Source: a virus (lineage: Duplodnaviria; Caudoviricetes). From it: a stretch of 36,126 nucleotides of DNA. Shown piece after piece: positions 4,083 to 20,465 of the stretch; within the stretch, counting starts at the first letter, position 1, and every line of letters begins with the position of its first letter. Under the pieces are notes generated by a model, which ran no database searches, was not told the DNA's origin, and was given only the letters and a program-made list of their open reading frames with translations. The DNA lies in IMG/VR virus record IMGVR_UViG_3300033067_001276, positions 1 to 36,126 of that record. One strand, given 5' to 3'. The position numbers and the translations under genes are program-made.

Positions 4083-5366
4083 ATGCAATCTGCTACAACT
4101 TCTGCTGGCGCAACAGCTCTTGCGACGCAATACAACAACTTGCGTTTAGATGTGCTTCTTGGAGGTGATTATGCCACTTCTGGTGGTTCTGCTGACGTAC
4201 AAACGCTTTCATTAGATGCGCAAATCACGTCGTATGTTAACGGAATGCTTGTGCATTTTCGCTCTGGTTTTACCACAACGACACGAACACCAACGCTAAA
4301 CATCAACAGTATCGGAGCAAAAACAATGAAGAAGTTTGACCGTTCTGCTTTGTTTGTTGGTGAAATTATTGCAAATGCAAGCGTTATTGCAGTTTATGAT
4401 TCAACTGACGATTCATTTTTAATTTTATCGAATACCGATAAAGACACGCCTCCTTACGGTGATGAATCCGACGGCTCATTAAGTATTACAAGCGGTACAA
4501 CAACGCTAAATGAATCAACGAGGAACGTTTATCAATATAAAGACGTTTCAATTACAGGAACTGGTGCGCTAGCTATTGGTTCAAACCATCAAAATAAGCG
4601 TGTATTTATTCTTGTAAACGGTGATTTAACCGTTACTTCTTCAACAAACCCCGCCGTTGATGGTCGTGGTCGTGGTGGCTCTGGTGCCACGGGTGCGATA
4701 TCTCATTCAGCAGTAAATGGTACGGCTGGTAAAGGAATACAAAAAGTATCTTCTAGCGGTGGTATTGGTGGGTCAACTTCTACTGGCCCTGCAACGTTTA
4801 ATGCTCCTGGTGGTGGCGGTGGTGCATCTTGTGTAACGGCTGGTTCTACTGGCGAAAACGGTTCAGGTGGTACAGGCATGGTCGCTGGCGTTGGTGGCGG
4901 AACTGGCTTGCTTGTCGGTGCAACGTCTTCTTCGCCAATTAATCTTTCGCATTGGCTAGATATTCTTGGTTGTGGTGATGGTGGTGGTGCTGGTTGTGGC
5001 TCTACGGGCGGTTCTCGTGCTGGCGGTGATGGTGGTGCTGGCGGTGGTTGTATTATTTTTCTCGTCCGTGGAAACATTAATATAACGTCAACATTTAATG
5101 TTAGCGGGTCAAATGGCTCTGATGGAACAAATAATGGTTCAAACTATTATACTGGTGGCGGTGGTGGCGGTGGTGGTGGTTCGTTAGGAATCTTTTATAA
5201 AGGTTCTGTAACAGCTAACACTGCAACGCTAACAGTTTCTGGCGGTTCTGGTGGATTAAACGCTCTTGGAAGTCCAGGAACTGGTGATGGTGGTGCTGGT
5301 GGTGCTGGCATTGCATTGGTTAAACAAATTGAAGTGCTATCGTTCCACTTTCTTGTAAACGGTTAA
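4083..5366 (+). CDS. Glycine-rich tail fibre / receptor-binding protein
   Basis: N-terminal TLNINSIGAKT fibre motif, long GGGGGxG runs, last gene of the tail module. Confidence 0.7.
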   Translation: MQSATTSAGATALATQYNNLRLDVLLGGDYATSGGSADVQTLSLDAQITSYVNGMLVHFRSGFTTTTRTPTLNINSIGAKTMKKFDRSALFVGEIIANASVIAVYDSTDDSFLILSNTDKDTPPYGDESDGSLSITSGTTTLNESTRNVYQYKDVSITGTGALAIGSNHQNKRVFILVNGDLTVTSSTNPAVDGRGRGGSGATGAISHSAVNGTAGKGIQKVSSSGGIGGSTSTGPATFNAPGGGGGASCVTAGSTGENGSGGTGMVAGVGGGTGLLVGATSSSPINLSHWLDILGCGDGGGAGCGSTGGSRAGGDGGAGGGCIIFLVRGNINITSTFNVSGSNGSDGTNNGSNYYTGGGGGGGGGSLGIFYKGSVTANTATLTVSGGSGGLNALGSPGTGDGGAGGAGIALVKQIEVLSFHFLVNG

Positions 5367-9399: not shown

Positions 9400-9780
9400 T
9401 TAGGAAAACTCAATGGGTAGAATAATATTGTCAGGCTTATCGTAATCCACGAAGCACGAGCGCATCTCTTCTGCGGTGAATCCCGCGATACCACACCCTA
9501 CCTTGGTTACGAGGAACGTCTTATCTGGATGAGCAAGCGCGCACTCGTAGAGATTCATCACGCTATCGCGGATCTGTGGCAACGTACGAGGCGAGAAGTC
9601 TTTATTCAGCGTAGGGAAGGCGTAAGACTGGCCAGATAGCCCTTCTCCTACGCCCATTGCTAGGCCGAAGCGTTCAAACGCGTGGCGTGCTGCACCGCCT
9701 AGGTGAGCGCCAGCCATGTTTGTACCAACCACAATGATCTCGTTTTGCCCTAGGCTTTCGATTTTTTCTTGGGTGTACAT
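9400..9780 (-). CDS. Macro-domain-like phage protein (A1S_2505-like family)
   Basis: VVGTNMAGAHLGGAA..A...FG...G.GEG..GQSYAFPT and FLVTKVGCGIAG motifs. Confidence 0.7.
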   Translation of the reverse strand: MYTQEKIESLGQNEIIVVGTNMAGAHLGGAARHAFERFGLAMGVGEGLSGQSYAFPTLNKDFSPRTLPQIRDSVMNLYECALAHPDKTFLVTKVGCGIAGFTAEEMRSCFVDYDKPDNIILPIEFS

Positions 9781-10370
9781 ACTTCAGTGAGTTCTGGGAT
9801 ACGAGACTGGAGATAAGCTTCTATTTTATCGAGGGCGGCGGCATCGGCGGCACGGGCGGCGGCATAGGCGGCGGCATCGGCGGCACGGGCGGCGGCACGG
9901 GCGGCGGCACGGGCGGCGGCATCGGCGGCATCGGCGGCGGCACGGGCGGCGGCACGGGCGGCGGCTTTATTTGCTTCCGACGGGTCGTTGAGCCATGTTT
10001 TTGCCGCGTTTATCGCCTCTCGTGGTCGTGAGTCTTGTGGGTATTGCTTTTCGTAGATTCCAATCACCGTTTCTGCGGAGAAAATAGCAAGCTTCACAGA
10101 TTCCTCGTTTGTCCACTCATAGGCTTTGATAATACGCATCTCCGTCCATGCCTGCTTGTCATCCTGCGCGTCACATTCTCCGCGTACTTCTACCACCGCG
10201 AGTATCTCACCTTTAACATAGGCTAGCGCGTCTAGAATCTTCTCGCTTGCGTGGAATCCAGTGCTACATGCCTCGGCCCTATCTTCTTTTTTCCATTTTC
10301 CAACTGTCCATTTGCATTTACCGTATTCTGACTTGAGCCCTGTCCGTAAGAACTTGTAAAGGGTTGGCAT
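9750..10370 (-). CDS. Phage protein with CSTGFHAS domain, Imm5-like segment and Ala-rich repeat
   Basis: YKFL..CSTGFHAS N-terminus; AE.VI..YE..YP.D.RPR.AI.AA..W segment; AARA/AADA repeats. Confidence 0.7.
   Translation of the reverse strand: MPTLYKFLRTGLKSEYGKCKWTVGKWKKEDRAEACSTGFHASEKILDALAYVKGEILAVVEVRGECDAQDDKQAWTEMRIIKAYEWTNEESVKLAIFSAETVIGIYEKQYPQDSRPREAINAAKTWLNDPSEANKAAARAAARAAADAADAAARAAARAAARAADAAAYAAARAADAAALDKIEAYLQSRIPELTEVCTPKKKSKA
9833..9965 (-). repeat. In-frame 9-12 bp GC-rich tandem repeat (GCC GCC GCC CGT/GAT/TAT)
   Basis: Seen directly; encodes AARAAARAAADAADAAARA... Confidence 0.9.
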
Positions 10371-16926: not shown

Positions 16927-17295
16927 ATGCCACAAATTGAACTATATTTTACAACGCCCATAACCCCTAAAAAGAATAGCTTTAGAGCAGGGCGAACACG
17001 GGACGGGCGTTTGTTCCAGTATAAAAGCCAAAAAGCCAAGTCTTCTCAAGAAGGATTGCATTATGAAGCTTGGATACAGGCTAAAAAGGCAAAGCACGCC
17101 ATTATCGAAACGCCTGTAAAAGCCGAGTTTTACTTTCGTAAGACAAGAGCCGACTTAATAGGCGTTGCGGAAACGTTACAAGATGCCTTAGAAGATGCCG
17201 TATACAAAAATGATAAACAGATTATCGAACAGAAAATGAAGTGGACGGAAAACCTAGAGCATGGTTATACTGCTTTTGTCAGGATTTTATGGTAA
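16927..17295 (+). CDS. rusA: RusA-like Holliday junction resolvase
   Basis: PKKNS N-terminal motif; RADL....TLQDALE..VYKNDKQI acidic motif. Confidence 0.75.
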   Translation: MPQIELYFTTPITPKKNSFRAGRTRDGRLFQYKSQKAKSSQEGLHYEAWIQAKKAKHAIIETPVKAEFYFRKTRADLIGVAETLQDALEDAVYKNDKQIIEQKMKWTENLEHGYTAFVRILW

Positions 17296-17298
17296 AAT
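17290..17298 (+). promoter_or_regulatory. Extended -10 TGGTAAAAT; leaderless start of the parB-mom-terminase operon
   Basis: 6 nt upstream of ATG 17305. Confidence 0.6.
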
Positions 17299-17304
17299 GA
17301 TTTT

Positions 17305-17817
17305 ATGAACAACACAAAATATTCTAGTAAGATGTGGCAGATTGAAGACTTACGTCAAGCAGAATATAACCCCCGTTCAATCTCAAAAGAGCGTTTAGAA
17401 GAACTAAAAAAGTCTATACAATCTGACCCTGATTTTCTTCATGCACGCCCAATAATGGTAAATGTTTTGCCTGAACGTTTTGGCGTTATTATTGGGGGCA
17501 ATATGAGGTTTTTGGCTTCAAAAGAATTAGGGATGGATAAAGTGCCATGCATTGAAGTATCTTTACCCATTGAAAAAGAAAAGGTTTGGAATGTTCGTGA
17601 TAATTCACATCATGGGCAATGGGATATGGCTGCTTTGGAGGAACTTTTTTCTGTTGATGCCGCATCATTTGAAAATGCCGTACCTTCTGATTTTTTACGA
17701 GAGGTTCTTTCCGTACAGTTGCCTTCTTTTGGTGAAGGATTAGAAGAAGAGCAAGGAAAACTAGATAAAAAAAAGGAAGTAAAATGCCCTGATTGTGGCA
17801 ATATTTTTTCGCCATGA
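17305..17817 (+). CDS. ParB N-terminal (ParB/Srx) domain protein with C-terminal CPDCG knuckle
   Basis: YNPRSI....L.KSI, RPIMV, IIGGNMR..A..LG and DN...GQWD motifs. Confidence 0.85.
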   Translation: MNNTKYSSKMWQIEDLRQAEYNPRSISKERLEELKKSIQSDPDFLHARPIMVNVLPERFGVIIGGNMRFLASKELGMDKVPCIEVSLPIEKEKVWNVRDNSHHGQWDMAALEELFSVDAASFENAVPSDFLREVLSVQLPSFGEGLEEEQGKLDKKKEVKCPDCGNIFSP

Positions 17818-18440
17818 GCAAACTACTAGTCGGTTGGGCAACGCATCAAGCCACCGTTTTAGCTTGCACACGATACCATTACTCTAAATCTGTACCCGCT
17901 GGTAAATTAGTAAAGATTGGCGTTTGGGAAGACAATGTTTTTAAAGGTGTAGTAATTTTTTCTTACGGTGCAAATAATAATATAGGCAAGCCTTATGGCT
18001 TGGTTCAGCAAGAAGTTTGTGAATTAACACGGATTGCTTTAAAGAACCATGATGCGCCAGTAAGTAAGATTGTATCTATTGCTTTGCGGTTTTTAAAAAA
18101 GTATTGCCCTGGAGTTCGTCTTGTAGTTTCTTATGCTGATAAAGACCAAGGACATAGCGGCGGAGTCTACAAAGCGGGTAATTGGGTATATGAAGGGTTG
18201 TTTAATGAGGGTACAAAGTGTGCATATATTATATTTAATAAGCGTGTTCATCCAAAAACAGTCCACTCAAGATACGGTAAAGGTTCACAAAACCTTCGTT
18301 GGCTTCAAGCAAATGTAGACCCAAATGCAAAAGAAATAAAAACCCTTGGCAAGCATAAATATCTAATGCCCTTGGACGAAAATGTAAAAAGTAAGGTAGA
18401 ATTATTACGCAAGCCTTATCCCCATGCGTCAAAAGTGTAG
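17814..18440 (+). CDS. mom: Mom-like adenine-modification enzyme (GNAT fold)
   Basis: HYSKSVP, GVVIFS, ELTRIAL, VVSYAD..QGH.G.VYKAGNW.Y.G, KHKY and KPYP motifs; ATGA overlap with the parB-like gene. Confidence 0.82.
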   Translation: MSKLLVGWATHQATVLACTRYHYSKSVPAGKLVKIGVWEDNVFKGVVIFSYGANNNIGKPYGLVQQEVCELTRIALKNHDAPVSKIVSIALRFLKKYCPGVRLVVSYADKDQGHSGGVYKAGNWVYEGLFNEGTKCAYIIFNKRVHPKTVHSRYGKGSQNLRWLQANVDPNAKEIKTLGKHKYLMPLDENVKSKVELLRKPYPHASKV

Positions 18441-18501
18441 ATAGCGACACGGTATCTTTCCAAGATACAAAGGGCGGTGCAAATCCGACCTTGACGCTCC
18501 A
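18426..18501 (+). tRNA. Non-canonical tRNA-Gly(TCC)-like gene
   Basis: Cloverleaf: GCGTCAA/TTGACGC, GTGT/ACAC, GTATC-TTTCCAA-GATAC, GGGCGG-TGCAAAT-CCGACC, discriminator T and encoded CCA; 76 nt. Confidence 0.8.
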
Positions 18502-18511
18502 TGCATATTTT

Positions 18512-18913
18512 ATGCCAAAACCCTACAAAAAGCCCTTAGCAAAAGACGGCACACATCGAGGCTCTAACAGCATTTACCCCGAAAAAAGAGATATTGTTTT
18601 AGAGCATCTTCGTGTTGGACATACTGACATAGACGCTTGCATTATGTCGGGCATCTCACACCATGCTTTTTATGATTGGATTAAAAAACATGATGATTTT
18701 GCCGAGGACGTAAAGAAAGCACGCCTTACAGCCAAAGACCAATGCGTCAAAATTGTGCGTAAAGCGGCTCTTAAAACGTGGCAAGCTGCTGCATGGTACT
18801 TAGAGCGTCGTTTCCGTAACGAGTACGCCATGAAACAGTTTGTTGAACATAACGGCAAGGTGGTTTCCCTTACCGAAAAAGCAGAAAAGACCGCCAAGAA
18901 ATACGAAGAATAG
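18512..18913 (+). CDS. terS: Terminase small subunit
   Basis: HTH-like AC..SGIS...FY.W and WQAAAWYLERR motif; directly upstream of terL. Confidence 0.8.
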   Translation: MPKPYKKPLAKDGTHRGSNSIYPEKRDIVLEHLRVGHTDIDACIMSGISHHAFYDWIKKHDDFAEDVKKARLTAKDQCVKIVRKAALKTWQAAAWYLERRFRNEYAMKQFVEHNGKVVSLTEKAEKTAKKYEE

Positions 18914-18914
18914 C

Positions 18915-20465
18915 ATGACTGTTTCCTTCGCTGATTGGGTGCATGACCTTAAATCCGTCCCCGAAGAAGAACAAACAGCATGGATTTTTAGGACATTGCG
19001 AAGTAAGAAGATGCTTCACGTTTTTGCGTTGTACTTCTTTCCGCATATGTTCCCTAACCCGAAGATACCCGATTGCCACCTTGACTTGGTGCGTGAAATA
19101 TCGGCACAGAAAGATAGTGCAATTATCTTTCCTCGTGGCTTTGGCAAATCAACATGGGTTAAGATTGATACCATACACGATATTGTCTACGCCTTAGAAC
19201 CCGTTATTTTGTATATTGGAGCCACTCTTGGCGACGCTTCCGTACACTTTGAAGCTATTAAAGCACAGTTAGAGTCTAACGAACTGCTTATAGCCGTATA
19301 TGGGGAACTTGTACCCCCTGAAAGCCTTTTGGGGCGCAAATGGACGAATACCCATTTTGAGACCACCAACGGCGTAAACGTGGTTGCTCGTGGACGTGTG
19401 AAAGGGCGTGGTGTGAACATTAAAGACCACCGTCCTACAAAAGCTATTATTGACGACGCAGAAGACGACGAAATGGTACGCTCGCCAGTACGCCGTGCGC
19501 AGTTTCACGAGTGGCTTTACTCGGTTATCTTCCCTTCCTTAGATAAAGAGCGTTCAAAGATAAAGATGATTGGTACGGTTCTACACGAGTTTGCCGAAGT
19601 GCTACAATTCTACGAAAAGCACGGCGGTATCTTTCGTAAGGCAATCGAGAACGGCAAATCTATCTGGGAAGAGCGATACCCGTTGCACGAGCTTGATGCT
19701 ATCCGCCAAAAGCTAGGCACGCGCATTTTTAACCGTGAATATCTAAATGACGCAAAAAACATGAGCGAATCTACATTGAACCCTTCTTTTATACAAAAGG
19801 GTATTTACACCGTGCCACCGCCTGATAAATACCATGCCTTTGTCTACATAGACCCGCAAGCAGGCGAATCAAGCATGGCAGATGAATATTGTATTACGGT
19901 ACTTTATGCATCTAAGACCACGCCACACCGTTTTGTTATTGAGTACCAAAATGGAAGAGAATCACAGCTAGAACAAGCAAAAAACGTTGTGCGCGCATGG
20001 CTACGGCATAAAGAGCTGGCGTTGCGTGTAGGCGTTGAAAAGGTGATGACGCAAACAAGCGTGTATCAAACTATCGCCGACTGGAAATCCCACAAGCTAG
20101 ACTTCAATACGCCAAACATGAGCGAGCATGATGCGGAATGGATAGACGAGCGAGATAGGAACATCCCCCTTGTTGCTTGTTCGCCAAAGGGGAAAGACAA
20201 GGTCGCACGTCTTCAAGTGTTTGAACCTGATTTTGAACGTGGCGAAGTACACTTGCGCCAAGATATGACAGTTATGATTGAACAATTAACGTTTCTTGGT
20301 GGGAATATTCTTGACCATGACGACGTGGCGGACTCGCTTATCGGTGCGCTTGAGCTATGCGGAAACCGTAAGTCCATAGGTGGCAACAGTGATAAAAATG
20401 CGCTAATGCCGAAAACAAGATACAATAATACTGTAATGGGAAATATACGCACCAAAATATTCTAG
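18915..20465 (+). CDS. terL: Terminase large subunit
   Basis: Walker A PRGFGKS, IIDDAED, IGT, FNREYLN, YIDP and HDDVADS motifs. Confidence 0.93.
   Translation: MTVSFADWVHDLKSVPEEEQTAWIFRTLRSKKMLHVFALYFFPHMFPNPKIPDCHLDLVREISAQKDSAIIFPRGFGKSTWVKIDTIHDIVYALEPVILYIGATLGDASVHFEAIKAQLESNELLIAVYGELVPPESLLGRKWTNTHFETTNGVNVVARGRVKGRGVNIKDHRPTKAIIDDAEDDEMVRSPVRRAQFHEWLYSVIFPSLDKERSKIKMIGTVLHEFAEVLQFYEKHGGIFRKAIENGKSIWEERYPLHELDAIRQKLGTRIFNREYLNDAKNMSESTLNPSFIQKGIYTVPPPDKYHAFVYIDPQAGESSMADEYCITVLYASKTTPHRFVIEYQNGRESQLEQAKNVVRAWLRHKELALRVGVEKVMTQTSVYQTIADWKSHKLDFNTPNMSEHDAEWIDERDRNIPLVACSPKGKDKVARLQVFEPDFERGEVHLRQDMTVMIEQLTFLGGNILDHDDVADSLIGALELCGNRKSIGGNSDKNALMPKTRYNNTVMGNIRTKIF

Follow-up and report, generated by a model that had tools for sequence, protein, structure and literature searches.

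The window, i.e., the entire 36,126-nucleotide stretch analyzed here, is a near-complete 36-kb phage record (IMG/VR IMGVR_UViG_3300033067_001276). Its late genes are arranged in the order rusA-like, parB-N, mom, RNA, terS, terL, portal and capsid, with the following features on the plus strand: (i) a ParB N-terminal-domain protein (17305..17817; Pfam ParB_N, E 2.1e-08), the stop codon of which overlaps the start of mom, (ii) a Mom-family GNAT protein of 208 amino acids (17814..18440), likely a DNA adenine glycyl-transferase, (iii) a mom-linked, tRNA-Gly-derived RNA of 76 nt belonging to the D-arm-containing class (18426..18501; fold, RNAalifold, covariation and covariance model R1), (iv) the terminase small subunit TerS (18512..18913; phrog_4102, E 5e-20), and (v) the terminase large subunit TerL (18915..20465; phrog_38, E 3.7e-64). 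A neighbouring parB-N is also found in the cultured phages Sicarius2, Appa, Y8A and phiEf11. Since both a public sequencing run (possibly the source sample), matching 17210-19300 with zero differences, and the contig of a relative, covering 18124-19232 with 33 differences, span the region, the mom-RNA-terS arrangement is not an assembly error. At position 18511, contigs from two runs fuse the start of terS to different upstream sequence, and close relatives appear to hold another module replacing mom and the RNA. One contig from an RNA library spans 18439-18969; this library may contain DNA and matches numerous further regions of the phage. Contigs from RNA libraries cover part of the RNA as well as terS, leave 17836-17969 and 18104-18438 of mom uncovered, and cannot show transcription. 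A promoter/terminator scan yielded 10 promoter-like sites (6.9 ± 2.4 expected) and no plus-strand terminator downstream of the RNA. Elsewhere in the window, an ORF on the minus strand (9750-10370) has DUF7666 and Imm5-like matches and contains a short repeat region attracting unrelated contigs.

Affiliation of ORF 17814-18440 with the Mom family, as proposed by the initial annotation, was borne out by concordant matches to Pfam Mom PF25680 (E 1.6e-46; 159 bits at a curated cut-off of 27.1) and phrog_1384 (Mom-like; E 1.5e-55), and by pairwise alignment with the crystallized Mu Mom chain 8bv8 (E 2.3e-08). In the latter alignment, six of seven active-site residues of Mu Mom are identical (H58, Y59, R111, S124, D149 and Y159), while R151 is replaced by Asp. 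Among 170 representative Mom homologues, H58, R111 and Y159 are invariant, and the R151 column varies with or without the RNA. An active-site residue tracking the presence of the RNA was ruled out, since none of the seven columns does so. According to excerpts of the Mu Mom study (PMC13219725), R151 is essential in Mu Mom, and the enzyme moves glycine from Gly-tRNA-Gly onto adenine N6, yielding the N6-carbamoylmethyl product 6-NcmdA. All three tRNA-Gly isoacceptors of E. coli serve as donors, while Gly-tRNA-Ala is rejected; the enzyme depends on glycine carried by a tRNA-Gly body, with recognition probably directed mainly at the acceptor end (PMC13219725, same excerpts). Work on Gly-tRNA as Mom donor, which the initial annotation had mentioned, does exist. 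Mom of the window is predicted to share this donor chemistry (Gly-tRNA to 6-NcmdA).

The 76-nt cloverleaf (18426-18501) described by the initial annotation could be confirmed from the sequence. It starts in the last codons of mom, the final four of which plus the stop codon TAG (18438-18440; RNA positions 13-15) lie within the RNA, and its CCA ends 10 nt short of the terS ATG at 18512. The acceptor stem is fully paired (7/7), including G1-C72, C2-G71 and G3-C70, and is followed by the discriminator U73 (18498) and an encoded CCA (18499-18501; together 18498..18501). The anticodon TCC (18459..18461) provides the GlyRS identity elements C35 and C36, so that the complete set of glycine identity elements attributed to this RNA is present. 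The anticodon arm is canonical (U33, A37), and several elongator features are missing, as had been claimed: A8 replaces U8, the D-loop lacks GG, and the T-loop reads UGCAAAU instead of carrying UUC. The T-stem, previously interpreted as containing a G-A mismatch and an extra base, is better read as five pairs, with one A (18488) bulging out between pairs 50:64 and 51:63, based on RNAalifold of the family and covariation; this bulge is the hallmark of the family and a predicted block to EF-Tu. Folding of the single strand yields the cloverleaf with a modest z-score of -2.6 (equalled by 4 of 200 shuffles), and the strong evidence for this structure is comparative. The RNA scores 85.3 bits with model R1, the training set of which (53 sequences) included the window copy. 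As anticipated for a tRNA finder, ARAGORN remained silent on this copy and made no call anywhere in the window; likewise, Rfam 15 gave no covariance-model match at E<=1 within 17500-19000.

Related RNAs were retrieved with an RNA-only pattern that combined UCCA and the 3' strand of the acceptor stem with the bulged T-arm and required neither the 5' strand nor the anticodon. An estimated ~1,800 stretches in IMG/VR match the narrow form of this pattern, of which 120 were fetched. The acceptor stem is fully paired in 109 of 114 distinct sequences, with 51 different 4-mers at positions 4-7, and each of the 112 distinct cloverleaf-forming copies carries an NCC anticodon (TCC 56, ACC 49, CCC 7), compared to 22 % expected after shuffling; GCC is nearly absent from the family. 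RNAalifold returned the cloverleaf unprompted from 53 long copies, including the T-stem of five pairs and a bulged A. In these copies, 97.4 % of the cells are paired (0 of 500 shuffles reach this value; slid controls 37-45 %) and 16 of 22 pairs display compensatory change on both sides; sequence kinship inflates such covariation counts and is retained in the slid control. Pairs 50:64 and 52:62 covary between G-C and A-U with no mixed case in all 112 distinct copies. In 56 of these, the D-arm is absent; these 56 RNAs measure 68-72 nt (67-72 nt for the short class overall) and have an anticodon helix longer by 2-3 pairs. Two different D-armless copies follow a single mom in tandem at L119, L182, L362, L707, L723 and L634.

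The 126 distinct copies obtained from the protein side, counted with model R1, which favours sequences resembling its training set, contain the bulged A in 124, U73 in 117 and the encoded CCA in 113 cases, as compared to U8 in 52, T-loop UUC in 36 and U33 in 65; positions 32-38 are pairable in 95, and the anticodon is ACC in 34. Among the 124 bulged copies, G49-C65 (119), G50-C64 (102) and C51-G63 (109) predominate. Thus, the loss of translation-related features noticed initially holds for the window copy, but D- and T-loop losses vary by clade; what is conserved against translation is the bulge in the T-stem. The nine distinct copies with A73 instead of U73 all belong to clade A4 (L506, L521, L523, L525, L526, L539, L540, L552 and L554); neighbouring ORFs gave nothing decisive on an archaeal-virus origin of these copies. 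ARAGORN called 15 family loci among 54 loci, leaving the tRNA type undetermined in 10 cases; in a set of 44 loci, it called no copy located at the end of mom.

The RNAs are tightly linked to mom. A mom homologue is present in the fetched flank of 109 of the 120 pattern-first viral RNAs, and eight of the 11 viral loci without adjoining mom have <=300 nt upstream. At L116, mom is located 1.3 kb off, behind an inserted glycosyltransferase gene. At L096, a GNAT protein (35-556) scoring above the Pfam Acetyltransf_1 cut-off and without Pfam Mom match is encoded convergently with a bulged RNA, and possibly represents a further tRNA-dependent DNA modifier. The record of L149, which has no mom, contains a damaged RNA copy before terS. 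Among fully paired copies from metagenome contigs, mom lies nearby in 49 of 52 cases, as opposed to one of 70 other (chance) matches. The pattern scan of GTDB genomes, which mostly retrieved chance matches (109/123) and served as negative control, placed 11 of 14 cloverleaves near mom versus 0 of 109 other matches (seven of the latter being 6/7-paired without anticodon arm). Pooled chance matches are near mom in one of 179 cases, and all 24 RNA neighbours tested passed the Pfam Mom cut-off. As a control, the T-stem was searched without its bulge, which gave 96 viral loci. Their 44 fully paired cloverleaves mostly represent ordinary tRNA-Gly, and mom is near none of them; it is near three more loci of one sequence type, which instead contain a G7-A66 mismatch, also seen in the tRNA of phage Appa. 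A conserved, covarying cloverleaf beside homologous mom genes, for which the initial annotation had suggested to search, was thereby found in four Mom clades. At L808, L811, L761 and L809, degenerate tRNA-like RNAs were observed that have no bulge and end in GCG/CGC-UCCA, with mom being absent from the surrounding 1.2 kb; L811 precedes an uncharacterised ORF and L809 a ParB-like gene.

None of 13 tRNA-Gly entries called by ARAGORN in five host genomes is bulged. One Terriglobia genome contains a bulged tRNA-Gly (L268; G001:C7:486925-487002) in addition to its own normal tRNA-Gly(TCC), with no mom detected, and 60 family relatives of this genome provided no match with a tRNA-like T-loop (judged by eye). 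The bulge as a host-lineage trait was rejected on the basis of the normal host tRNA-Gly and the negative Terriglobia relatives.

Viewed from the protein side, 19 of the 80 closest viral mom loci carry the RNA directly after a conserved K-P-Y-P end and 61 do not. Across clades, model R1 detected the RNA in 19/80 (window clade), 79/80 (A3), 54/80 (A4) and 5/80 (A5) loci, the window-clade set being swollen by redundant prophages and the shares of A3 and A4 being biased upward, since the queries behind them were taken from loci with the RNA and contained residues encoded by it. The sole A3 locus without RNA match ends at the gene. In a tree of the 170 representatives, the prophage groups without RNA branch from within RNA-bearing groups, at nodes that are weakly supported. 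A relaxed search for other tRNA-Gly forms at 168 loci without model match, the sensitivity check of which failed, returned one ordinary tRNA-Gly (L417). In A4 mom genes without RNA (L501, L522, L542, L557-L559), an N-terminal peptide resembles the RNA-encoded one with no cloverleaf being formed, apparently reflecting decay of the tRNA gene into coding sequence. Prophage mom genes without RNA (L026, L034, L036, L039-L041, L044, L045, L050) have a different conserved hairpin pair after the stop codon. The mom loci L042 and L030 are near-identical, except that L042 is devoid of the mom C-terminus and the whole RNA, due to either deletion or assembly collapse.

The RNA is located at the 3' end of mom in the window clade and A3, and at the 5' end in A4 and A5. 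It travels with mom rather than with terS, as evident from its position at either mom end depending on the clade and its distance from terS in Arthrobacter phages. Of 80 downstream copies, the mom frame reads through 71, stops inside four and stops before five, and all 47 upstream copies are spanned by an open frame. All three reading frames are used across the downstream copies, so that conservation of the RNA is not accounted for by constraint on the protein. An RNA that adjoins terS in many phages, overlaps coding sequence and has a modest z-score on its own could also be imagined as a tRNA in decay, as the relic of an integration site, as a packaging signal or as a side effect of protein coding. 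Covariation largely refutes this group of explanations, which the compensatory changes, the use of all frames, the dissimilarity of the whole 68-76 nt unit to host tRNA-Gly and its presence where terS is absent render virtually untenable.

The overlap with the mom frame in nearly all copies, where excision would damage the mRNA, would also suit a cis-acting tRNA mimic in the mom mRNA, i.e., a processing site or GlyRS-bound switch tuning translation or decay without donation of glycine. Such a function is unlikely, although it is the strongest competitor among the alternatives considered: the RNA resides at either gene end, forms tandem pairs (L119, L182, L362, phage Y8A), is convergent on the other strand (L096, L673) or separated from mom by 1.3 kb and an inserted gene (L116), and its encoded CCA and U73 matter to a free 3' end, not to a cis element.

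Several cultured phages possess the mom-RNA pair. Psychrobacter phage vB_PmaS_Y8A shares the gene order of the window and contains two unannotated D-armless copies between mom and terS; it was reached via one of the weak, partial matches that BLASTN of the RNA against cultured phages exclusively returned. The bulged copy of Salinibacter phage B2_17 is annotated plainly as tRNA-Gly. At the mom stop, Arthrobacter phages BarretLemon and Sicarius2 have tRNA-Gly(TCC)-like genes that are missing from the annotation, are not bulged and carry A8, that of BarretLemon having a weak A51-U63 pair, and Microbacterium phage Appa encodes a near-normal tRNA-Gly(CCC) by mom on the opposite strand. A match in Melnitz proved to be a different tRNA. 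No such RNA was found in the fetched flanks of mom from Mu, JD024, FSL SP-031, Phynn, Stickynote, RaK2, pAEv1818, TCUEAP3 and phiEf11. In Mu, the com gene occupies the corresponding place by mom.

The latter arrangement bears on the idea that the free RNA is an inhibitor or antitoxin of Mom, restraining a host-toxic enzyme in the prophage state or until infection is at a late stage: in Mu, mom is controlled differently, with com in the same place, a substrate mimic would be encoded beside its enzyme, and loss of translation features would fit equally well. This idea is nevertheless improbable. C35 and C36 are kept in all copies though Mom is thought to read the acceptor end, pointing to selection by GlyRS, and many mom genes of temperate prophages, which would need an antitoxin most, are without the RNA.

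A working translational tRNA-Gly, refilling a pool that Mom or host tRNA nucleases deplete, would agree with the canonical anticodon loop of the window copy, the nearly normal A4/A5 copies and the Appa tRNA, but is still more doubtful. The D-arm and U33 are each gone from half of the family, and ACC is common while GCC is nearly absent; glycine codons of the phage are mostly GGC/GGT (279/418 in 15 ORFs). The fibre gene (ORF 4083-5366), stated initially to prefer these codons, indeed contains GGT 59, GGC 19, GGA 12 and GGG 2 times.

Finally, the RNA might act as a decoy for host defence toxins hitting the acceptor end of tRNA-Gly, such as TacT-type acetylases, reported to read U73 and G71 (PMC9976931, in part), or FaRel2-type enzymes, reported to select tRNA-Gly (PMC11559606, in part). 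A decoy would leave unexplained both the invariant bulge and the tight tie to mom instead of defence genes, and is accordingly very improbable.

The most economical reading of the kept GlyRS identity, the lost elongator features, the bulge and the published chemistry of Mom is that of a dedicated glycyl donor. The cloverleaf structure, the glycine identity elements, the bulge and the link to mom are observed features of these RNAs, and we consider it probable that they represent a conserved tRNA-Gly-derived partner and dedicated glycyl donor of phage Mom. The more general proposition, namely that tRNA-Gly bodies, as small as D-armless 68-mers, nested in a DNA-modifier gene, charged by the host and barred from EF-Tu by the bulge constitute widespread phage RNA cofactors donating glycyl groups for hypermodification, is favoured by a narrower margin over its negation.

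The RNA would likely be cut from the late transcript by RNase P and 3' trimming, and likely be charged with glycine by host GlyRS. The family retains exactly the bacterial identity set for this enzyme (G1-C72, C2-G71, U73, C35 and C36; PMC9976931, in excerpt), while acceptor positions 4-7 vary freely; charging of the D-armless forms by bacterial GlyRS is putative. Affinity to EF-Tu is set by the T-stem pairs 49:65, 50:64 and 51:63 (excerpts of PMC3239215 and PMC7826273), and the bulged A among these pairs is predicted to block EF-Tu and thereby to let the charged RNA escape; the term "bulge" does not occur in PMC3239215. U73 is described to shield free Gly-tRNA from the deacylase DTD better than EF-Tu does (PMC6097841, in part), which suits a carrier that is not EF-Tu-bound. 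Mom would then take over the glycine from the charged RNA and place it on adenine of the phage DNA, with the presumed benefit of a glycyl pool closed to the ribosome while DNA is packaged. Given the overlap with the mom frame, a transcript would serve as intact mom mRNA or as the source of donor RNA, not both.

Some observations run against a donor function. A4/A5 copies keep U8, U33 and often UUC, and might decode. A73 in 9 of 126 copies implies weaker bacterial GlyRS identity and invites editing by DTD (PMC6097841, in part). R151 of Mu Mom is not conserved here, and the bulged copy of the Terriglobia genome has no detectable mom. Moreover, mom comes without the RNA at 61 of the 80 closest viral loci, for the most part prophages with much redundancy, and at 75 of the 80 A5 loci, and Mu Mom works with ordinary host tRNA-Gly (PMC13219725, in excerpt). 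Because Mu and many prophages lack the RNA and Mu Mom uses host tRNA-Gly, the RNA is dispensable for Mom chemistry. The dedicated donor suggested initially is supported in that the identity of Mom and the conserved cloverleaf by mom withstood the refuting conditions set out for them, with the qualification that the RNA is an accessory, not a requirement.

If the donor function is true, phages go beyond scavenging charged tRNA for DNA hypermodification and build their own ribosome-proof glycine carrier, the use of which would shield their DNA chemically. It would also explain how a tRNA-dependent enzyme competes with EF-Tu late in infection, a question left open by the Mu study. The RNA would then be an orthogonal carrier of aminoacyl groups provided by nature and the first tRNA dedicated to the chemistry of DNA, and synthetic biology would gain a useful building block in a chargeable tRNA that a single nucleotide keeps from EF-Tu. 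Irrespective of function, the family is abundant, mostly missed by standard annotation, and adds D-armless tRNA-like RNAs outside mitochondria. Cultured phages with the mom-RNA pair make every step testable now.

A literature search, with subscription journals largely outside its coverage, retrieved the Mom mechanism and no mom-linked or phage-encoded donor tRNA. Keyword searches of the main text of PMC13219725, its preprint and two of three supplementary files yielded no mention of a phage-encoded tRNA, and excerpts of PMC7824862 and PMC5389517 contain no description of a mom-linked RNA. The Mom enzyme is thus already known, as is the principle that a GNAT-fold transferase can have its own tRNA, whereas the literature covered contains no tRNA for DNA modification that is encoded by a phage, nested in a gene, bulged and often D-armless.

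Among known systems (compared on the basis of excerpts from the studies cited), the closest on the enzyme side is Mu Mom (PDB 8BV8; PMC13219725), belonging to the same protein family with the identical active-site residues given above (6/7 aligned). In contrast to the window, where mom lies between parB-N and terS, mom of Mu follows com, has no such RNA beside it and relies on host tRNA-Gly. On the RNA side, the non-proteinogenic tRNA-Gly of S. aureus (NP1-3) acting with FemXAB likewise represent dedicated tRNA-Gly for a GNAT-fold transferase, with GlyRS identity kept and the EF-Tu contact region altered (PMC7826273). They are chromosomal and have an unbulged T-stem with weak pairs (A49-U65, U50-A64 and A51-U63; PMC7826273), which are not typical of the phage family (A51-U63 in a few copies and BarretLemon). 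The phage RNA differs in being bulged, often D-armless, phage-borne and overlapping with the gene of its enzyme, and in having DNA as acceptor. The EF-Tu antideterminant of tRNA-Sec (C7-G66, G49.U65, C50-G64) acts from the corresponding part of the acceptor/T helix to exclude EF-Tu, but employs base-pair identity rather than a bulge, and tRNA-Sec has its own elongation factor and decodes (PMC9976931). Like the D-armless mitochondrial tRNA-Ser(GCU) (PMC9976931), the short phage class has a loop in place of the D-arm; unlike the former, it occurs in phages of bacteria, has glycine identity and is predicted to be non-translating. Allo-tRNAs and irregular tRNA polycistrons are similarly non-canonical and missed by scanners, and some are chargeable and not used in translation (PMC5389517). 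Their acceptor branch is 8/4 or 9/3, and they are found near toxin-antitoxin genes (PMC5389517), whereas the phage family combines a 7/5 branch with a bulge on the 3' side of the T-stem and is tied to mom.
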